This document shows positions 6,669 through 43,389 of a stretch of 64,000 nt of DNA, piece after piece. The DNA comes from Escherichia phage phiWec179. The position numbers and the translations under genes are program-made. The notes under the pieces were generated by a model, which worked only from the letters and a program-made list of their open reading frames with translations, did no database searches and was not told where the DNA came from. The stretch lies in the sequence record LC739533.1; one strand, 5' to 3'. The first letter of the stretch is position 1, and every line of letters begins with the position of its first letter.

Positions 6669-6906
6669 TTAGCCACCTCGTCAGTTTTTCTTGCTCTTTG
6701 TTTGCGCGTTCTAAGCTTCTAAACTTTAAACAAAGGGGAAGAGTATCCACACCCATGCACAAGCTTTTATCTAAGCTGTGCTCCCCAACCAACCAAAGAG
6801 AATATGTTTGAACATCTAACCCATAGTTTCTGTCTTTCCATAATCTCACCCCAAGAACATCAAAAGGCGCTTCCGCGACTAAAGAAAGAAACCGATCTTT
6901 ATTCAT
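6655..6906 (-). CDS. hypothetical protein
   Basis: tiled ORF, 83 aa. Confidence 0.4.
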   Translation of the reverse strand: MNKDRFLSLVAEAPFDVLGVRLWKDRNYGLDVQTYSLWLVGEHSLDKSLCMGVDTLPLCLKFRSLERANKEQEKLTRWLNENK

Positions 6907-6907
6907 G

Positions 6908-7252
6908 TTACACCACCTCTACCACATGAATGGACACATCGTCACGGTAGTATTTATCATCCCCGTAAATCTGGCCCAAACGTACACATGCGTCGTAGAT
7001 AGAAAGGGCTGGGATCTGATAAGTTTTAATACTGCCGTTATCTTTTGTATACCGGATCTCAAAAAGACGCATCACATCTTCAGCTACCACCTCAAAAGTG
7101 GCGCAGCCCATTCTCAACTCAATAACACAATCTGTTCCGTCATCACTATTGATCCAGTAGTAGTCCACATCCTCGTCTGTATTTGTCACAGGGTATTGCT
7201 TACCAACAGTGAAATATGGAACGGAAGATGATACGCACAAAAGTTTAGTCAT
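6908..7252 (-). CDS. hypothetical protein
   Basis: GGAG + ATG at 7252 (MTKLLCVSSS). Confidence 0.4.
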   Translation of the reverse strand: MTKLLCVSSSVPYFTVGKQYPVTNTDEDVDYYWINSDDGTDCVIELRMGCATFEVVAEDVMRLFEIRYTKDNGSIKTYQIPALSIYDACVRLGQIYGDDKYYRDDVSIHVVEVV

Positions 7253-21427: not shown

Positions 21428-21488
21428 GCGGTGGACCGTTCCGCCGCCCTATGTGGTAAACTATACGCGCCAACGTTCCAGGCGTCAA
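21428..21488 (-). promoter_or_regulatory. promoter + 5'UTR stem-loop cassette (PeSL-like)
   Basis: TTGACG-N17-TATAGT TTACCACATAGG + hairpin GCGGCGGAACGGTCCACCGC. Confidence 0.55.
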
Positions 21489-21606
21489 GCATATTTTTAA
21501 AATTATTTTCTACAACGTAAAACGCCCCAGCATAAGCCAGGGCGCACTAATTAAATCAGGTAGGGGGATTGCATTGCCTTACACCTTTTAGGCTGTTAGC
21601 TGGCGA

Positions 21607-21834
21607 TTAATAGCGTAGGATGTTTACACGCTCATCCCGCCCCAAGATATCCTCATATCTGTTTCCCCTTCCTTCGTACCAGATGATCACGGTATGAGGA
21701 TCAAACGGATTGTTTTCGATAGCCGTTACCTTGCAGAAGTCATAAGACGGGAACGGATAAACGCCAACCTGTAAACGCGCCCGATCTCCTGGGCGAATGG
21801 TAGCGGCACGATCTGCAATGATATTGTTATACAT
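21607..21834 (-). CDS. hypothetical protein
   Basis: 75 aa. Confidence 0.45.
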   Translation of the reverse strand: MYNNIIADRAATIRPGDRARLQVGVYPFPSYDFCKVTAIENNPFDPHTVIIWYEGRGNRYEDILGRDERVNILRY

Positions 21835-21958
21835 GGTGCACCCCCTTAATATTTTTCTTTTTCTTTGCTTCCGTTCGTCTAAGGTTACGGCTTGACTTGT
21901 TACGCAAGGCGCTCAAATCATCATAACCTTTAAAAGGTTGCATATTGTTCGGATTCAT
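21827..21958 (-). CDS. small basic protein (start uncertain)
   Basis: AAGGGG + ATG at 21958; Lys/Arg-rich C-terminus. Confidence 0.3.
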   Translation of the reverse strand: MNPNNMQPFKGYDDLSALRNKSSRNLRRTEAKKKKNIKGVHHV

Positions 21959-21968
21959 GCTACGCCCC

Positions 21969-22247
21969 TTAACGGTTATAGATATTGTGGATAGTGATAA
22001 AGGCGCTACGGTCATAAGCTGCCAAATCGGGATTGATCCAAGTGTTATCTAATAGTGTTTCAAGGATAATAGACTCATCATGAATAGCATCATAGAAATC
22101 AGGGTTAATAATGGTGTCAATGTCGCTTTCTGTTAACTCTACATTCAGCTTGCAAACCGCTTGCAAATCGGCTTCACGCTTCCAATCTTGCAGATTAGTA
22201 GTCAGAATGTTGGTGATCTCTTCGGTAGATAATTTGGTGATGGTCAT
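21969..22247 (-). CDS. hypothetical protein
   Basis: 92 aa; cassette upstream. Confidence 0.5.
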   Translation of the reverse strand: MTITKLSTEEITNILTTNLQDWKREADLQAVCKLNVELTESDIDTIINPDFYDAIHDESIILETLLDNTWINPDLAAYDRSAFITIHNIYNR

Positions 22248-22265
22248 GATATTTTCTCTCTGTTA

Positions 22266-22323
22266 GGCGGGGCGCTTGTCGCCCCTATGTGATACATCTT
22301 ATCAGGTTGATTCAGCTTGTCAA
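22266..22323 (-). promoter_or_regulatory. promoter + 5'UTR stem-loop cassette (PeSL-like)
   Basis: TTGACA-N17-TAAGAT GTATCACATAGG + hairpin GGCGACAAGCGCCCCGCC. Confidence 0.6.
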
Positions 22324-22329
22324 TACTTT

Positions 22330-22536
22330 TTAACGTGTCGCGTAAATAATATTACTTGCCGGACTACTGCAAACCAGGTTAAGCGGCTTGCTGTTATATT
22401 GCATCTTGTCGGCTTGTTTGCTTGCTGCGATGATTCCATCTATTACACGTTGCAAACTAACCTTTACCGCCTTTTTTGCCAACCGTTGACGCTTTACCAG
22501 TGCCTGGATCTTTTTCTTGTCTGCGTTGCTTAACAT
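22330..22536 (-). CDS. hypothetical protein
   Basis: 68 aa. Confidence 0.45.
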   Translation of the reverse strand: MLSNADKKKIQALVKRQRLAKKAVKVSLQRVIDGIIAASKQADKMQYNSKPLNLVCSSPASNIIYATR

Positions 22537-22545
22537 GGTGCGCCC

Positions 22546-22725
22546 TTACTTGTTAGCCGGATTGTATGCCAGGATCGCGCCGCTTGCTTTCACGCTTTCA
22601 TCTTCATAGTTGCGCAGATCGTTTTCTGTAAGATTGAGCGCGATCACTTCCTCGATCTCAATGCCAGTGGCAAGGGCGATCTCTTTAATGATGTTTGATG
22701 ATCTGATAACGTTTACTGTTTTCAT
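22546..22725 (-). CDS. hypothetical protein
   Basis: AAGGTG + ATG at 22725 (MKTVNVIRSS). Confidence 0.4.
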   Translation of the reverse strand: MKTVNVIRSSNIIKEIALATGIEIEEVIALNLTENDLRNYEDESVKASGAILAYNPANK

Positions 22726-30351: not shown

Positions 30352-30465
30352 TGCAAATGAGAAAAATTCTCATTTGCAAATAAGACTCATTCGCATTTAA
30401 TAATTGAATGAGAATCATTCTCATTCTCATTCGTATTTCGATTTTAAGTGAGAATAATTCTCATT
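30352..30465. promoter_or_regulatory. three operator-like palindromes sharing half-site AATGAGAA
   Basis: TGCAAATGAGAAaaaTTCTCATTTGCA (30352-30378, perfect 12-3-12); AATGAGAATcATTCTCATT (30407-30425); TGAGAATaATTCTCA (about 30449-30463). Confidence 0.5.
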
Positions 30466-30476
30466 TCGGTAATTTT

Positions 30477-30680
30477 CACGTAAACTTTAGAATTTGCTTT
30501 TCAACTTTCACTTTTGTAAAAGCAAAAAAACTTTAAATACCTGGTGCGCGCGACTTTTTAAAAAATTTTTCTCGGTTTTTTGCTTTGAAATCTGGCCCAC
30601 CAATTTGAGATAGTGTACGTAAACTTTAGAATTTGGTTTTGGATTCTCACTTTTGTAAACTCGTAAAAAGTTTAAATAAT
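30477..30680. repeat. imperfect ~64-bp direct repeat (two copies)
   Basis: ACGTAAACTTTAGAATTTG..CACTTTTGTAAA..TTTAAATA at 30477-30539 and 30616-30680. Confidence 0.5.
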
Positions 30681-30846: not shown

Positions 30847-30916
30847 ATTTCTGTGGCACAAAGTTGACGTATTCTTTTTAAAAACGAATTTTTTCAAAAT
30901 ATCACGAATATCGCCT

Positions 30917-31444
30917 TTATGGTATTTTGGCTGGGAACAGGATTTTAATCAGATTGTTGTGGTATTGTCCTAAAAGATTCTGCCCTTTCCAGTTGGCAGG
31001 ATTAAGCACCCCTGGTTCGTACATACCCATTCCAATTCCGTAAACCTTATCATAAGGACTCGCCTCAACGAACGTTTTGAATTGGTACAGTCGCAAGTCA
31101 GAATAAAGATCAGGGTTCTGTGTATACTTCAAGCATAAGCCTCGCATTACGATACGCTCTCGGTACTCTTCCCACATGTCATTATTAAAACCAGACACCG
31201 CTCGACCCATGCGCTTGTAGTATGCCTGTCCCTTCTCGTCGTCACGCTTCATTGAGTGATCAAGGATAGCTGCTGCGATTACCTGATCCTTGAACAGCAA
31301 AGCCTTACGCCACATCATGTATTGCTCTACACAACAGAAAGTTTCATTGTACCCTGGTTCCGTCTCTGTGAATGGTGCAATGTACCAATTGCTAAACACA
31401 TCTTTATGTGAAAAGAAGAATACATATTCATTAGTTATTCGCAT
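30917..31444 (-). CDS. NADAR (YbiA-like) family protein
   Basis: FFFSHKDVFSNW...ETFCCVEQYMMWRKALLFKD...MWEEYRERIVMRGL..KYTQNPDL...FVEASPYDKVYGIGMG...NWKGQNLLGQ matches NADAR signature. Confidence 0.8.
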   Translation of the reverse strand: MRITNEYVFFFSHKDVFSNWYIAPFTETEPGYNETFCCVEQYMMWRKALLFKDQVIAAAILDHSMKRDDEKGQAYYKRMGRAVSGFNNDMWEEYRERIVMRGLCLKYTQNPDLYSDLRLYQFKTFVEASPYDKVYGIGMGMYEPGVLNPANWKGQNLLGQYHNNLIKILFPAKIP

Positions 31445-31632: not shown

Positions 31633-31998
31633 TTAGTCCATCCACCAGTAGCCATAAACTGCGTCTGCGTCGATGAGTTTGTGTTTGTTGTTCCGCATGT
31701 AGTCTAAGATAAGTAGACGTTTATTGTATCTGGAGAGATTATGACCCTCTTTTCCGCCATAGTCAAAATATTTTGCAAGACTTTTACACTCAAACAAAAT
31801 CAGTTCGGGAGTTTCTTCACATTGGTCTGTCTGGTACACTTGACGGATGATCATGTATACGTCATCGTCTTCCGCTAAGTGCTCTACTGGTCCACACCCA
31901 GCAGGAATAAATTCATAGTCCCATCGAATCAGATGTTTCTCTACTGCTTCAAAGAAATCCATTTTTTCGCTACGCATGATCTGAACATCAATTAACAT
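31633..31998 (-). CDS. hypothetical protein
   Basis: 121 aa. Confidence 0.5.
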   Translation of the reverse strand: MLIDVQIMRSEKMDFFEAVEKHLIRWDYEFIPAGCGPVEHLAEDDDVYMIIRQVYQTDQCEETPELILFECKSLAKYFDYGGKEGHNLSRYNKRLLILDYMRNNKHKLIDADAVYGYWWMD

Positions 31999-33004
31999 AA
32001 TTTTCCTCCTGTCTCATTATTCCACCTGCTTGGTTGATAGCACTTAAGACAACAGCCAAATCCTCACGCAGGAAGGTTTCACTATGACCGTCTTTCATGT
32101 GCAACGCTTCCACACAGCCGATAGACGGTAGGATCTGATCAGTCTTAGATTTTAGCTTACTCTCTAACGCCCTGCAAGCCTGGTAGGACGGCAGATCAAA
32201 CAATGCTACACGTTGCATAAAGTAGTTATTATTTGCATTCTGAATCTTCAAACGTATATCACTATCCTTTGCAATCCCCAGCTTGAAAGCTCCCGTATCT
32301 TCTCCATACTCATCAAGGATAACGTTGATGTAAAATTCTTGCTGTGATCTGCCTTTACATTCAGAACAACCATTCCCACTTAGATACTTATTAGGTGTTA
32401 TCGTTTGTTCTCCGTGCTCACTACATAAATATTTAAACTTAGACATGGTTCCCACCTTACCAACGAACCCTATAAACTGGTCCCCTCGTTCCTGGCAAGC
32501 TTCAGTCATACGGAAAATCCATTGCGCAGGAGTGTAACGATGGTTTTTAGAACAACGGCAAGCAAGCAGCCCATCTCTAAGACTGCTCCTCGTTACTTCA
32601 AACCTACCGTTACACACGCCAGCCTTTACATATTCGTCATGAGAACATACGGAACACTTAACTATCCAATAAGCCGCCCATCCTTTACTATCTAATCTAT
32701 CACTACGATAATACTCACGCGGAACGTTATCAGGACACGCTTTGTTAAAGGTTGTGATATGGATTGAATCATCAATTAAACATGTTTGCCTTATTGCTTC
32801 CACCCTACAACCTTTACAACCACTTCCTATTTTAGCATTATCTATAGAAGTTGTTCTCCATTCCCCATGTATAGAACATTCACAGGTTAGTTTAGTGCGT
32901 GCCCCCTTCCATTCACCATGCCACCCCGTAATGGTCCACGGTTTATCCTGGTAAGCTTGTTCTATTTCTTCCTGATATTCCTCCCAACTTTTAGCCCTCA
33001 TCAT
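31988..33004 (-). CDS. zinc-ribbon repeat + T5orf172 (GIY-YIG-like) domain protein, homing-endonuclease-like
   Basis: repeated C..C...G.GC..C zinc-ribbon units; C-terminal FKLGIAKDSDIRLK...HMKDGHSETF; paralog of 36572..37525. Confidence 0.5.
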   Translation of the reverse strand: MMRAKSWEEYQEEIEQAYQDKPWTITGWHGEWKGARTKLTCECSIHGEWRTTSIDNAKIGSGCKGCRVEAIRQTCLIDDSIHITTFNKACPDNVPREYYRSDRLDSKGWAAYWIVKCSVCSHDEYVKAGVCNGRFEVTRSSLRDGLLACRCSKNHRYTPAQWIFRMTEACQERGDQFIGFVGKVGTMSKFKYLCSEHGEQTITPNKYLSGNGCSECKGRSQQEFYINVILDEYGEDTGAFKLGIAKDSDIRLKIQNANNNYFMQRVALFDLPSYQACRALESKLKSKTDQILPSIGCVEALHMKDGHSETFLREDLAVVLSAINQAGGIMRQEENYVN

Positions 33005-33041
33005 CCCCCCTACAACAAATGCCCCTTGCGGGGCATCTTTA

Positions 33042-34181
33042 TTAGAACACGCTACTTAAGGTTGCAGATCGTGTAGTGGTTGGTTCCAGAACCACACGGA
33101 ACGTATCCCCAGGTTTATCGCTCACTACTACAATCTTACCACCTTCGATCAGGTCACACTTCAAACCTTCGGCAGTAGCTTTCAGGTCGATGCGTGGATC
33201 GCCATCATCATCCAGGATAACGTAGCTGCTATCTTCGAGAGGCTCCAGTTCTTCGTCTTTCACGGCTTCCAGGTAGATGTTCAGTTCACATGCACCAGAC
33301 AAGAACTTGGTAGGAGTGAACTCATGCCAGTTGTTGACCCAGTTAGGCTTGATAGCTTTACCGTTGACAACAATAGAGCTAATCGTCCAGCGTGCATCGT
33401 TACCCAGAGAGATACCCATCATCTCCAGACAGGTCTTGAACGTCATTTTCGGATAGAAGTTTAACTCTTCTACGATCCCTTGAATAACATCGAAAGACAG
33501 TTCAGTGCTAACATCCCACAAACGTTGGAAGCTTTCAACATGTTTGCGATTCTTCAGATTCTTGTCCAGGTAGTCCAGCATAGTTTCAATAGACAGTTTG
33601 TCGTAGTTGAAGCTATAGAAGATACGGCTCGGACGGTTGACGAAGTATTCCGAGATGTATCCGCTGTTCTTTGTCAGCATGAACAGTTTGTTACCGCTAC
33701 CTGTGCCATCCAGCAGAGTCAGCAGTGCTTCCTGATCTTCCTTCTTGGAATACACTTTGTCGAACTCATCGAACAGTACTACTGCGCGTTCAGAGATCTT
33801 ACTCATGAACTCCAGGAAATTGGCATCAGAATATGGCTGCGTTACCAGAATAGTTGGGATTCCCAGGTCTTCCGCTTCCAACAGAGTGTTACTGATCAGT
33901 TTTGCCAGCATTGTCTTGCCACTGCCTTTTGTACCCGACAACAGGACACCTGTGTTCTTACCTTCTTTACTACGACGAGCGAAGGTACGGATAACGTGGG
34001 CTGCACGTTCTTTGGTTTCCCCGTACAGGCGATCAGGAATCGTGAACTTATCAGCGCGACTAAGAGAATAGTTACCATGTGGATCACAATTGACAGTCCA
34101 AACGCCAGCGGGGAGTTTATCAACCTCTACACCAAAATCTTTATTAACAATTGCAACATCCCCATAAACTGTGTATTTCAT
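33042..34181 (-). CDS. P-loop NTPase (AAA+-like ATPase)
   Basis: Walker A GTKGSGKT, Walker B VVLFDEFD; 379 aa. Confidence 0.6.
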   Translation of the reverse strand: MKYTVYGDVAIVNKDFGVEVDKLPAGVWTVNCDPHGNYSLSRADKFTIPDRLYGETKERAAHVIRTFARRSKEGKNTGVLLSGTKGSGKTMLAKLISNTLLEAEDLGIPTILVTQPYSDANFLEFMSKISERAVVLFDEFDKVYSKKEDQEALLTLLDGTGSGNKLFMLTKNSGYISEYFVNRPSRIFYSFNYDKLSIETMLDYLDKNLKNRKHVESFQRLWDVSTELSFDVIQGIVEELNFYPKMTFKTCLEMMGISLGNDARWTISSIVVNGKAIKPNWVNNWHEFTPTKFLSGACELNIYLEAVKDEELEPLEDSSYVILDDDGDPRIDLKATAEGLKCDLIEGGKIVVVSDKPGDTFRVVLEPTTTRSATLSSVF

Positions 34182-34249
34182 TTACTTTCTCCTCTTCTGT
34201 TGGAATAGACGTATTATCTCTTGTCTAATACGTCTTGTCAATACTTGTT

Positions 34250-34609
34250 TTAGATCCCTTCGCCTTTAGTGATGATAGCTTCCATCACCACAGCTTTCTT
34301 CTTACGTTGAACATCTTGACGGATCAGGAGGCTACCACCTTGATCATCCTTATACTGCTTCATGATGATGAAGTTGTTGCCACACACAGCGCCGATAGCC
34401 ACGTATGGGCGATTAGAATTATCCACATCCGCAGATGGGGTTACATCCGTGCAAGTAAAGAACTTGCCATCAGGATCAGTATAAGCAAAGTGGCCTTTAG
34501 CAGTTACTGCAACTTCTCCGGTGCTTGTGGACTGTGCAGCCACAAACGGTGCAGCAGATGCTACGAAACTTGCAGACAGCAGGGCTACAGCTAAAATAAT
34601 CTTTTTCAT
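34250..34609 (-). CDS. secreted protein
   Basis: signal-peptide-like MKKIILAVALLSASFVASA. Confidence 0.5.
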   Translation of the reverse strand: MKKIILAVALLSASFVASAAPFVAAQSTSTGEVAVTAKGHFAYTDPDGKFFTCTDVTPSADVDNSNRPYVAIGAVCGNNFIIMKQYKDDQGGSLLIRQDVQRKKKAVVMEAIITKGEGI

Positions 34610-34619
34610 GGTGATCTCC

Positions 34620-34781
34620 TCTTATTCCAACAACATACACAATGCAGCTACAACCAAGAACAGAGTAGCCACGCTTAAAGCGATAAACATTCCTAATTGA
34701 GAATGAAATTCGCCTATGATAGGTGCAGACAACGCACTTAGCAAACAACCTGTCAAACTTGCTTTGATAATAAGATCTAAC
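34620..34781 (-). CDS. small membrane protein (53 aa)
   Basis: AGGAGG + ATG; two hydrophobic segments; below ORF-track cutoff. Confidence 0.35.
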
Positions 34782-34791
34782 ATATTACCTC

Positions 34792-35043
34792 CTACAATTC
34801 CACAATAGTTTTATCTAAGTGGTGTGCCTCAACTTGAGATAAGGTTAGCACTTCAACCAAACCTCTGTCAATACCTAATTTGATCACTTGCAAATAATCA
34901 CCGAAAAGATCAGAGATTTCAATCTGGTGTTCAGTAACCACCACGACCTCGTTACCCTTGGTATACTCTCTCCAGATTCGTCCACACTTATAAATGAAAT
35001 CTTTCTGGTCTTCACTGATCATCTTAGGCTTAACGCTTAACAT
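34792..35043 (-). CDS. hypothetical protein
   Basis: 83 aa. Confidence 0.45.
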   Translation of the reverse strand: MLSVKPKMISEDQKDFIYKCGRIWREYTKGNEVVVVTEHQIEISDLFGDYLQVIKLGIDRGLVEVLTLSQVEAHHLDKTIVEL

Positions 35044-35411
35044 TACATACTCCCGTAGTCTGGTTCAATATGGTGTTTACGACAAATAGCATCCCAACGT
35101 TCACTACCGAAACCCCGTCCGTGTAGTGCATCGTATGCGAAATGTTCTGCCAACCACAATACTACACCATCTGGTTCAGTGTCAAGCGGAATTCGAAATT
35201 CTCGATCATAACGCATACGGAGAACAAACTCATTACCGTCTTCCAGGAGATGCATGTGACTTTTCGCTCGTGATGCCAAGTCAAAGAAAGGTGCCTCGTC
35301 TTTCCAAACCTGGCGCTCAACCTCAATACCGTGATCAACTACCAGGGTAGCAATCACATCTTTCATTTCTTTACTAAACATATTCCCTCCTAATAATGTT
35401 TTAAAGTCCAC
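35043..35411 (-). CDS. hypothetical protein
   Basis: 122 aa. Confidence 0.5.
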   Translation of the reverse strand: MDFKTLLGGNMFSKEMKDVIATLVVDHGIEVERQVWKDEAPFFDLASRAKSHMHLLEDGNEFVLRMRYDREFRIPLDTEPDGVVLWLAEHFAYDALHGRGFGSERWDAICRKHHIEPDYGSM

Positions 35412-35635
35412 TCAATACCTGACGGGTAACTGCCTCGACAAATCTTACCATCGGAATGCCAGTTAATGCTATCAGGGAAAGTATGATTTAGTGTTTTTTC
35501 ATGAGGAAGCCATTCTGTAGGCTTCTCTCCACCATTGATCCATACAAAACCTTCGTCTTCCAGTAAACCTAAAGCAAACTCCATCTCTTCTGCATCGTGA
35601 ACCGTTACTTTCTGACCTTTCTGTAATTTAATCAT
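35390..35635 (-). CDS. hypothetical protein
   Basis: 81 aa. Confidence 0.45.
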   Translation of the reverse strand: MIKLQKGQKVTVHDAEEMEFALGLLEDEGFVWINGGEKPTEWLPHEKTLNHTFPDSINWHSDGKICRGSYPSGIEWTLKHY

Positions 35636-35644
35636 ATTACCCCC

Positions 35645-35830
35645 TTAACCAATTAGTTGGACTGCCTTGCAGATGTAAATCCAAACAGGACTAAGCATAA
35701 GTGCTACAATACTGGGGTAAATCCCTTTTGGCTCTATCTCAATTATTGATAAGATTAAGGTGACAGCACTGATAAACATATAAGCTCCCAAGAAAGCCAG
35801 CGTCAAGAATTCAGACATAATTAGCTCCAC
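35645..35830 (-). CDS. small membrane protein
   Basis: hydrophobic FLTLAFLGAYMFISAVTLILSI. Confidence 0.4.
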   Translation of the reverse strand: MELIMSEFLTLAFLGAYMFISAVTLILSIIEIEPKGIYPSIVALMLSPVWIYICKAVQLIG

Positions 35831-36153
35831 AAGTTATGAAAATATTCAGCAAACAGGCAACGACCTTCGATTTTATCCGTTTTGGTCATAACGGATTCAG
35901 GTTTAAAACCTTCAATCATTTGATCAATAATGGATAACCACTCCACTGTAGCTTCCCGCTCCTGCTCTTCTGTTAGTTTACGGTAATCTGACACATATTT
36001 AGCCCAAATCTTAGATGGGATAAGGATATCCCCTCGTTCCACAATACGTGCCTTGAACGCGTACAGTCCAGCACAGATAATCGCGGAGAACGTATCATCC
36101 AGGTCTTGCAGATCTTCTACGCCAAATTGTAATTCATCATGGATAATTTTCAT
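35821..36153 (-). CDS. hypothetical protein
   Basis: 110 aa. Confidence 0.5.
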   Translation of the reverse strand: MKIIHDELQFGVEDLQDLDDTFSAIICAGLYAFKARIVERGDILIPSKIWAKYVSDYRKLTEEQEREATVEWLSIIDQMIEGFKPESVMTKTDKIEGRCLFAEYFHNLWS

Positions 36154-36437
36154 TTTGTTTCTCCCCGCTCTGCGTCTAATTTCAATAAGAAGGCTGCATA
36201 CTCTTCCGAACCTTTGTGTAAGAACATACGATAAGAACTCACCAGTTTCTTCGTTGTTGTATAACGCTCCATTCCGCCGACAACCCCTGTACCGAGAGTG
36301 TAGAGAACAACACCTTCAACCCCAACATGGGTTACGACTTCAACCATGTCCGTGTTATCCCAGTGATATTTAGGGGATACAATAAGATCGCCAACTGCTA
36401 ATTTGATGTTTGCCGCTTCGTCTTGTGAATAGTACAT
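36150..36437 (-). CDS. hypothetical protein
   Basis: GAGAGGAGAACAAA + ATG; first gene of leftward unit. Confidence 0.5.
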   Translation of the reverse strand: MYYSQDEAANIKLAVGDLIVSPKYHWDNTDMVEVVTHVGVEGVVLYTLGTGVVGGMERYTTTKKLVSSYRMFLHKGSEEYAAFLLKLDAERGETK

Positions 36438-36482
36438 TTTGTTCTCCTCTCACATTAGGACACGTTTTGTGTCGATGGGTGT

Positions 36483-36511
36483 AGATTACGTGAGCACAAA
36501 GGGGTTGTCAA
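36483..36511 (-). promoter_or_regulatory. sigma70-like promoter (leftward)
   Basis: minus strand TTGACA-N17-TAATCT, back-to-back with rightward promoter. Confidence 0.45.
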
Positions 36512-36516
36512 CTACT

Positions 36517-36545
36517 TATTGACAAAAATTTCTAAACGTTGTAAA
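36517..36545 (+). promoter_or_regulatory. sigma70-like promoter (rightward)
   Basis: TTGACA-N17-TAAATT, 27 nt before AAGGAGG + ATG of 36572. Confidence 0.5.
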
Positions 36546-36571
36546 TTAAAAACATCTACAAAGGAGGAAAC

Positions 36572-37525
36572 ATGAAATACGAAGATTTTAAACAAATAGT
36601 TAAAGACGATGTGGTATTTGAGAACTTACAGGAAGGTTGTGAAGTCTTAGGTTGGACAGAAAGAGATAGAAACTTTGCAAAAATATACGTAATACGTTGT
36701 AGTGTTTGTGCCAAAGACCCCGAAATGTATGGAGATGGTCTTTTTACAGCTACAAAAGGGCGTTTAGTGAAAGGTCAGAAATGTTGCGCGTGCGCTGTAT
36801 CCTTTAAATACAGTCAAAACCAACACCTAATTCTGCTAAACAGGCATTTAAGTGTCGCAGGGTACAGCATAGTTTCTATTGGTGCTTGGGAGTGTTCTAA
36901 GACGAGAATAGAGTTTAGTTGTGAGAATGGACACACGAAGAACAGAACCCTGGCTCAAGCAAAGGTAGTAGAACCTTGTAAACAGTGTCTTGAAGAAGGC
37001 TGTACAAAACACAAACAAGATGAGGCAGAGGCAAAAATTATGAAGATAATAGAAGATAAATGTTTACCTTATGTATTTGTAGGGTGGGATACTTCTTACA
37101 AGAATGTAACTTCAAAATTCAACCTCATCTGTTCGGATCACGGTTTAAAAACAATAAGATACGCTTGTTTCCTAAATGGTCATTTTTGTAACGAGTGTTC
37201 TGGTAGAAATTGCCTAAGTCTTTATTTATTAGGAGTTTATGATAGAGACTTGTTGGTAGGTTTAAAATTTGGCATCTCTCAGAGTCCAGTAAGAAGGGTT
37301 CAACAGTTAAATAAAAGGAACTTATTTAAATGTAAAATACTACAGATTTGGACTTTTACATCACATGATCAAGCTGTACGGATGGAAACATTATTAAAGA
37401 ACACATTGCGAACTGGAATATTTACTAAAAGAGAGATGAAAGATGGTCATACAGAAACCACAGAAGTTACTAATTTAGAAACCATAATGGACCTTATGAC
37501 CTCATCTCATGGATTGGTTAGTTAA
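36572..37525 (+). CDS. zinc-ribbon repeat + T5orf172 (GIY-YIG-like) domain protein, homing-endonuclease-like
   Basis: CSVCAKDP..CCAC, CKQCLEEGC, CNECSG cysteine pairs; C-terminal LKFGISQSPVRRVQQL...EMKDGHTETTEV. Confidence 0.5.
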   Translation: MKYEDFKQIVKDDVVFENLQEGCEVLGWTERDRNFAKIYVIRCSVCAKDPEMYGDGLFTATKGRLVKGQKCCACAVSFKYSQNQHLILLNRHLSVAGYSIVSIGAWECSKTRIEFSCENGHTKNRTLAQAKVVEPCKQCLEEGCTKHKQDEAEAKIMKIIEDKCLPYVFVGWDTSYKNVTSKFNLICSDHGLKTIRYACFLNGHFCNECSGRNCLSLYLLGVYDRDLLVGLKFGISQSPVRRVQQLNKRNLFKCKILQIWTFTSHDQAVRMETLLKNTLRTGIFTKREMKDGHTETTEVTNLETIMDLMTSSHGLVS

Positions 37526-37820
37526 CAAAAACCTTAACATTTCCGATGTTCTTGCTGACTTCTTGTGAGAACATTGAAAGTACCTTGTCAAGCAGTTTTA
37601 CTAATTCATTTGTAATTTGTTCCTCTGAACGAGAAGAAGTAAGTACCTTACTCTCACCAACGATGTGCATCACCTTGATAGGAGCATTCAGGATAACATT
37701 GTGCTTTTCATCTTCTTCGAAAGATGCTAACCACTTCTCATTATTCCCGTGCAAAGCCACGATAACACCAAAACCGTTAATAGTTTGTGAAATGTTCTTA
37801 GTTGCTAATGTAATGTTCAT
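37518..37820 (-). CDS. hypothetical protein (lone minus-strand gene)
   Basis: AGAGAGG + ATG; own promoter TTGACC-N16-TACAAT at 37849..37876. Confidence 0.45.
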   Translation of the reverse strand: MNITLATKNISQTINGFGVIVALHGNNEKWLASFEEDEKHNVILNAPIKVMHIVGESKVLTSSRSEEQITNELVKLLDKVLSMFSQEVSKNIGNVKVFVN

Positions 37821-37848
37821 TGTTCACCTCTCTTAATAATGTAGGGCT

Positions 37849-37876
37849 ATTGTACACTAAAAATATTTCAGGTCAA
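37849..37876 (-). promoter_or_regulatory. sigma70-like promoter
   Basis: minus strand TTGACC-N16-TACAAT. Confidence 0.4.
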
Positions 37877-37879
37877 GTG

Positions 37880-37907
37880 TTGACAAGCTTTTTGGTTCTG
37901 TTATGAT
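37880..37907 (+). promoter_or_regulatory. sigma70-like promoter
   Basis: TTGACA-N16-TATGAT upstream of 37938. Confidence 0.45.
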
Positions 37908-37937
37908 TAGCTCATACTAAATGAGAGGAGAAAACAA

Positions 37938-41416: not shown

Positions 41417-41779
41417 ATGAAAAAGCTACTTTGTGTCCTGATGTTGATGATTGCCACCAATGCTACAGCCGCCCGTGACGGTTTCAAGATTGGGGTGGAA
41501 GGTAGCCAATTCTTCACTTGGTACGGTGGTGAAGCTGTCTACCAGGTGGATGATAAAAAGTATAACTGTAAGTTTGATCGTATAGATCGTGGAGTAGATA
41601 ATTGGGGCGACGCTTATAAAGCAACAGGTTTTTATTGCACCAAAGAAATCTACATTACGGTCAAAGAACCACAAGACAACAGAAAGGTGTTGTTTATTGT
41701 GATAAACCCTGCTAAATTTGAAGAACGTAAAGCTTACTATGCAGATATGTTCATTGAATACAAAAAGGAGGAAAAATGA
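41417..41779 (+). CDS. secreted protein
   Basis: signal-peptide-like MKKLLCVLMLMIATNATAA. Confidence 0.5.
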   Translation: MKKLLCVLMLMIATNATAARDGFKIGVEGSQFFTWYGGEAVYQVDDKKYNCKFDRIDRGVDNWGDAYKATGFYCTKEIYITVKEPQDNRKVLFIVINPAKFEERKAYYADMFIEYKKEEK

Positions 41780-42138
41780 GAGAAACAATCGTAGATGTTG
41801 TTATTAATGGACAACGTTATGTACCTGTTATAGAGAAAGCTGAACCAGACGCTTTAGATGTTGTCTTTGAAGATGATGATCTTGGCACTGTTACTGTGCG
41901 TGAATATTTCAGACGACTACTCTCTACACTTTGGGAAGAAGAAGACAGTTTTAGTGGAAAACGACCTTTTGGTAACTCTTGCTGGCAGTTCGATTTGATT
42001 ATCGGTTTGATCGATGCTGGCTACCTGGAGGGTAAAGTTTATCGTGACGAAGATGGAGGTATAGAAGATACCGACTATGATCGTGAAGAAGCAGATAAAC
42101 TCATTCAAGGTCTAATTTCACGTATGTGTTTGGGGTAA
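41776..42138 (+). CDS. hypothetical protein
   Basis: AAGGAGG + ATG; 120 aa. Confidence 0.5.
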   Translation: MRETIVDVVINGQRYVPVIEKAEPDALDVVFEDDDLGTVTVREYFRRLLSTLWEEEDSFSGKRPFGNSCWQFDLIIGLIDAGYLEGKVYRDEDGGIEDTDYDREEADKLIQGLISRMCLG

Positions 42139-42139
42139 T

Positions 42140-42508
42140 ATGAAAGTCTTGAACTTCTACCATTTAGGTAAAGTTGTTCCCGACACTGCAATATACATTG
42201 GACGCGCGATGCCCCACTTCGGGTTGAAAGCGTCAAAGTTTGCCAACCCGTTCAAACTGAAAGAGGATGAACCAAGAGGTGCTACCATTCAAAGATACAA
42301 AGAGTGGTTGTGGGATCAGATCCGTTCTGGTAAGATAACTCTTGAAGATTTGTTGGAGTTGGAAGGTAAAGATGTAGTCTGCTTTTGCTCGCCCCAGAAA
42401 TGTCATGGAGATGTGCTCGTTGCAGCCGTGGCATGGGCGCGAAGGGAATACGATAGACGTAATCCACCGTTTACGGATGGGTATTGGAACTGGGAGGAAA
42501 ATCTATGA
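42140..42508 (+). CDS. DUF4326-like protein (tentative)
   Basis: IYIGR...FANPF...Y..WL...GKDVVCFCSPQKCHGDVL pattern recalled for DUF4326. Confidence 0.4.
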   Translation: MKVLNFYHLGKVVPDTAIYIGRAMPHFGLKASKFANPFKLKEDEPRGATIQRYKEWLWDQIRSGKITLEDLLELEGKDVVCFCSPQKCHGDVLVAAVAWARREYDRRNPPFTDGYWNWEENL

Positions 42509-42869: not shown

Positions 42870-43379
42870 ATGTTCTTTGACGTAGATTCCTTATTCGTTG
42901 CCACTGCTGGACAATCTGCGGTTAACGCAGAGTTTGAAGAAAGGGAGGCGTGGATTGATGCTCATAACTATGATCCTACAAACCTAAACTGGTGCTGTAT
43001 GGATATCAAAGGTATGAGCAGGGATAGTGCGTTTAGGGCATACTACGCTGTATATACTCTTGACAATCTTTATCAGTATTTTGTATTCCGTAATATGATT
43101 GTCAACCTTAATCTTGCTGGGAGACTAAAGAACAAAAAAGAGTTTACTTTAGGGCACTACATACCGTTCAAAAAAGGTGGTGAACATTTTCCTTCCAACT
43201 GGACAGTGCAAATAAGAGTTGAAAATAACAACGCAGGTGATACAATACCAAAAGTCAAAACAAAATGGTCATGGGAGAAACAGGAACGTTATATACGTTC
43301 CCATCTCCCACCAAACCTGAGAGAGCCGTATGCGAGTCGGGCCTTTCATTTAATGAATATTGTCAAGAGTTTTTACTAA
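42870..43379 (+). CDS. hypothetical protein
   Basis: AGGAGG + ATG; 169 aa. Confidence 0.5.
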   Translation: MFFDVDSLFVATAGQSAVNAEFEEREAWIDAHNYDPTNLNWCCMDIKGMSRDSAFRAYYAVYTLDNLYQYFVFRNMIVNLNLAGRLKNKKEFTLGHYIPFKKGGEHFPSNWTVQIRVENNNAGDTIPKVKTKWSWEKQERYIRSHLPPNLREPYASRAFHLMNIVKSFY

Positions 43380-43389
43380 GGAGGATTTA

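Follow-up and report, generated by a model that had tools for sequence, protein, structure and literature searches.

Phage genes that join arrays of CapR zinc-finger domains to a T5orf172 nuclease, with the genomics of homing endonuclease genes (HEGs), have already been described (Barth, Dunham & Seed 2023, PMC10448857). In that survey, which used a criterion of E<=0.001 for T5orf172 and MUG113 matches, CapR domains, lined up as 'beads on a string', occur in 41.5% of the T5orf172 HEGs, and the genes have shuffled domains and lie where genetic exchange has its boundaries. Its tables were found to contain no phapecoctaviruses except Mt1B1_P17. Here we describe two genes of this kind, gene A and gene B, in a stretch of 64,000 nucleotides of Escherichia phage phiWec179 (LC739533.1), hereafter the window. 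With a probability of about 0.8, both are free-standing phage CapR-array/GIY-YIG (T5orf172-like) nuclease genes, treated here as HEGs, that entered two sites independently. They are ordinary additions to an already described family. The finding itself is ordinary, since the family is known and relatives are already named 'endonuclease' or 'putative homing endonuclease' in RefSeq and GenBank.

Over the 8 kb around both genes, the window matches Escherichia phage phiWec181 (LC739534.1; Stephanstirmvirinae, Phapecoctavirus; 154.5 kb) at 100% identity. A window coordinate equals the phiWec181 record coordinate minus 21675, and both genes are labelled hypothetical proteins in that record. Escherichia phage phiWec186 is the phiWec181 genome in a permuted record. 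Occupancy of the insertion sites was counted from BLAST summaries and sampled rows, using a spread sample of 60 rows out of 95 related GenBank records for the gene B site and 76 records for the gene A site. The sequences called L005-L008, L012 and L013 are metagenomic phage contigs and relatives. Gene A lies 4.8 kb into a leftward operon. Gene B is rightward and embedded in the leftward operon, one gene (DUF7325) before the strand switch. An earlier note, made by inspecting the letters of the window, had placed the two genes on either side of a divergent promoter junction; the strand switch seen in the open reading frame (ORF) map and the GC skew, at 37821-37937, is to the right of both, and so is the facing promoter pair within it.

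The two ORFs singled out in that note exist and have the following parts.

31988-33004, minus strand: gene A, 338 amino acids (aa), with three CapR zinc-finger units and a C-terminal GIY-YIG nuclease domain
32015-32344, minus strand: gene A nuclease domain, residues ~221-330, with invariant Y225, K241, G243, I244, R251, E281, G306, E309 and T310
32345-32947, minus strand: predicted DNA-binding array of gene A, three zinc units at residues ~20-75, 95-155 and 175-220
36572-37525, plus strand: gene B, 317 aa (BDU12440.1), with three CapR zinc-finger units and a C-terminal GIY-YIG nuclease domain
37208-37522, plus strand: gene B nuclease domain, residues 213-317, with invariant Y218, K232, G234, R242, E272, G292 and E295

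The GenBank entry for gene A (BDU12430.1) begins at the second ATG, at 33001. The repeated cysteine motifs noticed earlier are real CapR-type zinc-finger units. The CapR homology domain (Pfam PF21817) scores 93.2 bits in A and 73.6 bits in B against a cut-off of 24.2, with matching stretches numbering three in A and two in B, and it is also matched by 29/29 close homologs and 86/92 distant homologs. AlphaFold predictions on a 29-sequence family alignment gave a mean predicted local distance difference test score (pLDDT) of 91.2 and 91.6. In these high-confidence models, four-ligand Cys/His sites of the CxxC...CxC type form three separate small beta-rich modules per protein. The predicted zinc ligand sets are C41/C43/C63/C66, C117/C120/C149/C151 and C194/H197/C213/C216 in gene A, and C43/C46/C72/C74, C117/H121/C136/C139 and C187/H190/C206/C209 in gene B.

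The nuclease domain of gene A is modelled with a beta-beta-alpha-beta-alpha order. Y, K-x-G, R, E and G-x-x-E do not vary in the 29 close or the 92 distant relatives; in the models they are located, in turn, on strand 1, strand 2, helix 1, helix 2 and the loop after it. The core residues are Y225, K241-x-G243, R251 and E281 in A and Y218, K232-x-G234, R242 and E272 in B. The motifs KDGHSETF and KDGHTETT, which had been pointed out from the translations, are present, and the G..E inside them is invariant across the family. This order of residues on the secondary-structure elements is that expected of a GIY-YIG core. As modelled, both C-terminal domains have a GIY-YIG fold, nearest to T5orf172/MUG113. 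A PDB sequence search with the family profile gave only a weak zinc-ribbon likeness to ribosomal protein L31 (E ~0.03), and the fold was therefore taken from structure prediction. PHROG 681 ('endonuclease') matches both proteins at ~1e-57.

When each member of the family alignment was scanned, T5orf172 was found in 13 at E<=1 (best E 7.8e-5) and MUG113 in 11. Among 92 sampled relatives, E<=1e-3 was reached by only 4 for T5orf172 and 8 for MUG113, and no precomputed T5orf172 match was found among the close homologs. The homolog in Klebsiella phage FKP3 clears MUG113 (22.9 vs 22.3 bits). Both proteins are CapR zinc-finger arrays joined to a GIY-YIG nuclease of a sub-lineage that is poorly captured by the T5orf172/MUG113 profiles. 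The gene B nuclease domain alone, used as a query against 1.84 billion proteins, found 366 cluster representatives at E<=1e-3, in which the domain is nearly always C-terminal and the proteins are 300-480 aa long. A tblastn search with the C-terminal domain of gene A alone found large enterobacterial myoviruses only and no Vibrio phages. The RepA_N domain was not matched in A, B or other site-A alleles at E<=0.1-1.

Gene B is carried by a cassette that interrupts the DUF7325 gene, and the features of this locus are as follows.

36482-37569, no strand: gene B cassette, a 1088-bp insert relative to phiWec188, PsgM04F and ZCKP1 that replaces about 8 bp (BLAST breakpoints)
37518-37820, minus strand: DUF7325 gene, host of the insert (Pfam PF24011, E 7.6e-18)
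36455-36512, minus strand: displaced remnant of the DUF7325 3' end, recognized by comparison with empty alleles and L005
36519-36547, plus strand: cassette-borne sigma-70-type promoter-like site, TTGACA-17 nt-TAAATT, 10/12 matches in the promoter scan
36459-37669, no strand: tract near-identical to L012, 9 mismatches in 1211 bp, comprising the cassette with ~23 bp of left and ~100 bp of right flank
37569-37590, no strand: junction-proximal copy of the proposed target, holding a hypervariable patch at 37575-37584 (TGAAAGTACC in the window)

The insertion point is inside the 3' end of the DUF7325 gene, directly after the ...RMF codons; in phiWec188 (LC739537.1) this 3' end is at ~140100-140300. 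The last 16 codons of this gene (SQEVSKNIGNVKVFVN) are derived from the cassette and replace the original tail DNAPIDTKRVLM, and the gene is convergent with gene B, with an 8-nt overlap. The displaced remnant consists of the stop and last 8 codons (36455-36481), a scrambled 21-bp patch (36482-36502) and GGTTGTCAAC (36503-36512). The L005 remnant has stayed almost complete, and together with the sequence at the right junction it makes up a ~24-bp direct repeat (AAACATCCGAAGAA..TTGTCAA) on either side of the cassette; in the window both copies of this repeat are altered. A strong ribosome-binding site (AAGGAGG, ~36561-36567) follows the promoter of gene B, and TTGACA promoter-like sequences likewise lie upstream of the L005 and FKP3 homologs. 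At 36505-36525, the kept piece of the target TTGTCAA forms a 7-bp inverted repeat, 7 nt apart, with the gene B -35 box TTGACAA. The same inverted repeat is present in L012 and L005, and it could be a candidate operator.

The distribution of gene B is sporadic. Its site is continuous, and so empty, in all but 2 of the 60 sampled rows, the two being phiWec186 and FKP3. The phiWec186 row is interrupted at the gene B junction, and FKP3 matches only to the right of the junction because its site is occupied. This Justusliebigvirus has a 33% identical homolog with the same convergent overlap with DUF7325 and a similar cassette-type tail (...DVKVYL). A 74% identical homolog occupies the same site in L005-L008, and the gene B protein of L012 and L013 is identical to that of the window. 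These last two differ from phiWec181 in that the gene A site (site A) is empty and a third site (site C) is filled. A single protein relative, 25% identical, was found in IMG/VR. A fixed link between the gene B lineage and DUF7325 was rejected for distant phages, as annotation places the homologs of Pectobacterium phage DU_PP_I and Salmonella phage SSE121 elsewhere.

Comparison with L012 provides the evidence for recent exchange. Outside the near-identical tract, the window and L012 differ by 73 mismatches in the 560 bp to the left and are 72-93% identical right of 37670. In sliding 1-kb windows along the 18-kb overlap of the two sequences, the number of mismatches is 3-4 at the cassette; the median is 34, and elsewhere the number falls no lower than 15. 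A low-divergence tract with short flanks is the footprint expected of recent copying of a cassette between diverged genomes. Gene B combines sporadic presence/absence and clean junctions with a divergence lower than that of its flanks, and the alignments identify it as a sporadic, free-standing and recently exchanged cassette. A broad dip in identity (co-conversion) around the inserts was expected relative to phiWec188, and none was found; the region is patchy against phiWec188, with the flanks of both inserts 93-99% identical, and the informative comparison is that with L012.

Gene B is a self-contained cassette with a promoter, a ribosome-binding site, a nuclease ORF and a replacement tail for the interrupted gene. 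In the proposed mechanism, host RNA polymerase would transcribe gene B early. In cells also infected by a cassette-free phage, the three zinc fingers of its product would recognize an asymmetric site at the 3' end of that phage's DUF7325 gene, the GIY-YIG domain would cut the recipient DNA there, and recombinational repair would copy in the cassette along with a few tens of flanking bases. The carrier would escape cutting, its site being split by the insertion and rewritten in both copies of the core. What the sequences show are the domains, the modelled fold, the conserved residues, the junctions, the distribution and the recent exchange of gene B; DNA cleavage, the target site and homing itself are inferred from them, and marker exclusion by these putative nucleases is plausible. 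Gene A has the same zinc-finger and nuclease architecture and lacks a promoter of its own; it is placed after a hairpin between an ATPase gene and a conserved two-gene block.

The junction itself suggests where gene B might act. Five of the nine mismatches between the window and L012 are inside the 10-bp patch at 37575-37584, which reads TGAAAGTACC in phiWec181, GGTGAGCACG in L012 and GTTAAGAACA in ZCKP1. Nine cassette-free alleles across the subfamily have GAC AAY GTT CTT (AAC or CGG) ATG TTT, with almost no synonymous variation. The corresponding codons are GAC AAG GTA CTT TCA ATG TTC in phiWec181 and GAC AAC GTG CTC ACC ATG TTC in L012; in L012 most of the changes are synonymous, and over the six codons at the junction these two carriers have 5-6 different changes relative to the empty alleles. 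The left, non-coding copy is scrambled over 21 bp, with conserved sequence on either side of the patch. Both copies are rewritten in phiWec181 and L012, and a near-intact copy is kept in L005. We infer that these codons are part of the site that the gene B nuclease recognizes or cleaves, and that selection on carriers has favoured changes in them. In L005-type carriers, however, both copies are nearly intact, and either the full site must be longer or the specificity of that allele must differ. Exact matches to the junction patch were absent from IMG/VR, and a metagenome scan for it yielded just two ZCKP1-type empty alleles. More tentatively, and with odds clearly below even, gene B may be actively homing at a site ...GAC AAY GTT CTT NNN ATG TTT | GAT AAT.... 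The patch, which differs between otherwise identical cassettes and is near-invariant in cassette-free phages, would then mark an ongoing contest between nuclease and target, and the half-site at the -35 box might allow self-repression.

The insertion site of gene A is equally well defined.

32010-33016, no strand: site-A insert, ~1007 bp against a ~11-bp spacer in phiWec188 and L012/L013 (BLAST breakpoints and junctions)
33019-33036, no strand: G+C-rich hairpin ATGCCCCTTGCGGGGCAT between the ATPase gene and gene A, at the right edge of site A

The empty site reads CCTCC-GTATATGAGAA-ATGCCCC, and the flanks of the insert in the window are 95-99% identical to phiWec188. On the side away from the hairpin, the insert is followed by the ribosome-binding site for the neighbouring gene, and gene A overlaps the start codon of this neighbour. 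The hairpin is retained in empty and occupied genomes alike. The promoter scan found no promoter-like site before gene A. Site A is occupied in ~71 of 76 records. It is uninterrupted and empty at high identity in three of the 76, including phiWec188 and phiWec190, and the alignment likewise runs through it without a break in two records of a distant Klebsiella phage. The site is clean and empty in phiWec188/190 and in L012/L013, and since the flanks of these genomes are 95-98% identical, gene A is dispensable. An ancestral presence at site A in the subfamily was rejected, as phi92 gp222 (43% identical) lies across the strand switch and not at site A.

Every occupant of site A is a CapR-array protein (329-486 aa). 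Identity to the gene A nuclease domain ranges over 31-89%, while the adjoining g121 gene has ~92% nucleotide identity in the same phages. The nuclease domain of gene A is 88-89% identical to the ZCKP1/ESCO13-type allele, and the identity of the zinc units to the ZCKP1 allele falls toward the N-terminus (72%, 56% and 46%), with synonymous divergence (dS) of 0.9, 1.2 and 2.3 and an omega of 0.18-0.25. At the nucleotide level, identity to ZCKP1 is 94.5% in g121, 88% in the nuclease domain, 73%, 69% and 63% in the three zinc units and 74% in the ATPase gene. Nonsynonymous divergence (dN) and dS climb together toward the N-terminus (dS 0.44 to 2.3), with an omega of 0.17-0.25 throughout. The joint rise at this omega indicates purifying selection on a recombination mosaic; by the same values, positive selection was rejected for the DNA-binding array. 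By this gradient, gene A sits on a boundary of genetic exchange. Gene A most likely persists through conversion of allele against allele or of allele against empty site, or has acquired a useful role.

Several observations weigh against treating both genes as HEGs. Gene A is near-fixed at its site. A sporadic distribution is the classic signature of an HEG, and for gene A this signature is weak. The earlier description of free-standing selfish genes of the homing type holds up, most clearly for gene B, with its sporadic presence and recent exchange. That note had also named universal presence at a fixed position in relatives as grounds for abandoning the idea; gene A comes close to this, yet its alleles are very divergent and clean empty sites exist in phiWec188/190 and L012/L013. 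No second genomic background with the same gene A allele was found. For gene B, dS against L005 is 1.66, equal to that of the adjacent DUF7325 gene, with a dN/dS of 0.10; the cassette has also been inherited vertically over long times. The near-intact proposed target beside the cassette of L005 is awkward for that sequence as the sole recognition site. The domain reading of the earlier note is right, with T5orf172/MUG113 as the nearest families, although the Pfam thresholds are not reached: gene B is below the gathering score for T5orf172 (PF10544; 15.1 vs 20 bits) and MUG113 (PF13455; 19.4 vs 22.3 bits), and gene A has no Pfam match to either. Homing is unverified by experiment even for the members of Vibrio phage ICP1 (PMC10448857). 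Finally, the genomes are mosaic in general, and ordinary recombination could move a cassette without the help of a nuclease.

This last point is the basis of a rival explanation, in which homologous or illegitimate recombination of accessory cassettes accounts for the presence/absence pattern and the nucleases have no part in their spread. In its favour, the region has other small window-specific inserts without a nuclease (35392-35628, 21459-22546 and 41505-42359), and the ~24-bp direct repeat around the L005 cassette could permit simple excision or insertion. However, no other kilobase of the L012 overlap comes near the gene B tract in its low divergence, the edges of the tract coincide with the cassette, and the six junction codons carry clustered, partly synonymous rewrites that are unseen in the nine empty alleles. 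Such clustering points to selection at the DNA level by a site-specific nuclease, and we regard nuclease-free spread as quite improbable. The origin of the pair by recent duplication within the genome onto opposite strands, which the earlier note had taken as a sign of recent mobility, has a probability close to nil. The proteins do share a family and an overall architecture, and their homology, asserted in that note, is borne out by BLASTP (28% identity across 144 C-terminal residues at E 2e-14, and another, weak segment at E 4e-6). Nevertheless, they are only 22% identical overall in the family alignment, and their zinc-finger unit types are ordered differently. Gene A is 67% identical to the same-site gene of ZCKP1, ESCO13 and about two dozen other records, and gene B to the metagenomic homologs of L005 (74%) and L012 (100%). 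An identity of 22-28%, with each gene nearer to genes of other phages, marks them as independent insertions; A and B are separate old lineages, distantly related, that entered separate sites independently. In a tblastn search of the window with A and B for a third copy, the weak match at 45575-45745 (E 0.025) is antisense to a real ORF and was treated as noise. The C-terminal domain alone is found at just two places in the whole phiWec181 genome.

A further alternative is that one or both genes have been domesticated, either as a nuclease against competing phages, satellites or host DNA, in the manner of ICP1 Odn, or as a sequence-specific repressor, in the manner of PLE CapR or of the autorepression by I-TevI. 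Of the two, gene A is the more plausible case. Nearly all phapecoctaviruses have an occupied site A, and gene A is transcribed within the early leftward operon without a promoter of its own. All site-A alleles have intact catalytic residues at the low omega given above, where decay would be expected of a fixed selfish gene, and repeated cases of domestication in the family are reported by Barth et al. (PMC10448857), including the related phages Mt1B1_P17 and Inny. On the other hand, no RepA_N or other satellite-derived DNA-binding domain is present, the site-A alleles tested all being CapR arrays. The closely related genomes with an empty site A manage without the gene, and the nuclease domain is kept, unlike in CapR. 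Domestication is in our view unlikely, and the interpretation of both genes as independently acquired, free-standing HEG-type nuclease genes is preferred.

The surrounding region contains a further site of the family and a number of other features.

30904-30935, no strand: empty site C, just downstream of the NADAR gene, filled in L012/L013
37849-37907, both strands: divergent promoter-like pair, leftward TTGACC-16 nt-TACAAT and rightward TTGACA-16 nt-TATGAT (promoter scan)

The occupant of site C in L012/L013 (L012 2613-3602) is a CapR/GIY-YIG gene of 329 aa with about 29% identity to the A alleles. Between sites A and C lies the conserved g121-g74-NADAR block. The NADAR-domain protein is encoded at 30917-31444 (Pfam E 1.2e-33); its ortholog is labelled 'GTP cyclohydrolase II' in several relatives, which looks like a carried-over mislabel. 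Beside this gene, in a non-coding stretch of ~0.8 kb, four copies of a 21-bp palindrome AAATGAGAAnnATTCTCATTT with 23-40 bp spacing (30355-30466) are followed by two 62-nt direct repeats (30478-30539 and 30617-30678) that are 84% identical. The arrangement at 30355-30678 looks like an operator or iteron array; it has no Rfam match, and Rfam and tRNA scans of the window as a whole gave none.

The insert at 35392-35628 is 238 bp long and specific to the window, being absent from phiWec188, PsgM04F, ZCKP1, L005 and L012. It has an 81-aa ORF (35390-35635) with no Pfam match, and its edges carry a short near-repeat (CCTCCTTAAC.AATTAGTTG). The segments at 21459-22546 (against phiWec188) and 41505-42359 (against L012) are window-specific small accessory ORFs without a nuclease. 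Conversely, phiWec188, PsgM04F and about 20 other relatives have an extra minus-strand gene of 163 aa with a weak DUF7337 match (6729-7220 of the compared sequence L002) between the tudor-domain and DUF7325 genes (window 36438-36454), which the window, ZCKP1 and L005 are without. Several records in this comparison have other hosts on their labels, namely PsgM04F (Pseudomonas), A150/B15 and others (Campylobacter) and ABPW7 (Acinetobacter) (OR584014.1, MG0656xx, OP562383.1). They are 86-94% identical here to E. coli phapecoctaviruses or justusliebigviruses, which suggests mislabelling or contaminating coliphages. The UvrD-type helicase of L005 (12780 onward, 876 aa) has Hint and intein-splicing Pfam matches and probably carries an intein. 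The helicase ORF of the window (43360-44991) is 543 aa and that of phiWec188 is 533 aa, lengths that alone are consistent with no intein.

Homing by CapR/T5orf172-type nucleases has never been shown experimentally (PMC10448857), and the present locus gives a donor/recipient pair of cultured coliphages (phiWec181 and phiWec188) with precise junctions and a concrete prediction of the target site. If gene B is actively homing, this pair would be the first tractable E. coli system in which to prove homing by the family, and it would show how a modular string of zinc fingers specifies a long DNA site. The Pfam T5orf172/MUG113 models mostly miss the sub-lineage, and surveys that rely on them consequently undercount such genes in large enterobacterial myoviruses. 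Three insertion sites of the family lie within 7 kb and are differently combined in near-identical phages. The family genes mark, and probably create, recombination boundaries in coliphages of the therapeutic type.

I-TevI is an intron-encoded GIY-YIG homing endonuclease that represses its own promoter. Unlike A and B, it has its nuclease at the N-terminus, the opposite order, with a helix-turn-helix DNA-binding domain and a location in an intron; autorepression by the gene A or gene B protein is speculation. The Seg endonucleases of T4 spread by cutting a genome that lacks the gene and co-converting the flanking markers (marker exclusion). Gene B shows the footprint expected of Seg-like spread, a cassette with short near-identical flanks. 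To our knowledge, CapR zinc-finger arrays are not among the DNA-binding modules of Seg proteins. T4 SegE and SegG (cited in PMC10448857) are likewise free-standing GIY-YIG genes between or at the ends of phage genes.

The CapR domain PF21817 is shared with PLE CapR, the capsid-operon repressor of a Vibrio cholerae phage satellite (Netter et al. 2021, PMC8096241). Unlike this repressor, A and B still have a nuclease domain, in which all the conserved core residues are present. ICP1 Odn and the Odn-like nucleases of the coliphages Inny, Muut and Mt1B1_P17, from the same phage subfamily, are T5orf172-type nucleases fused to a swappable DNA-binding module. That module is a satellite-copied RepA_N in the Odn-type proteins, whereas A, B and the site-A gene of Mt1B1_P17 have CapR arrays and no RepA_N. 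The architecture is shared with putative HEGs of the Vibrio phage ICP1, such as gp165 and gp174, and of other phages (PMC10448857), which have N-terminal CapR zinc-finger repeats and a C-terminal nuclease of the GIY-YIG superfamily. In contrast to the ICP1-type HEGs, the nuclease domain of A and B belongs to a separate sub-lineage that mostly fails the T5orf172/MUG113 survey criterion. The genes nevertheless resemble the ICP1 CapR/T5orf172 HEGs in their variable presence, in the domain shuffling of their alleles and in their location at boundaries of exchange.

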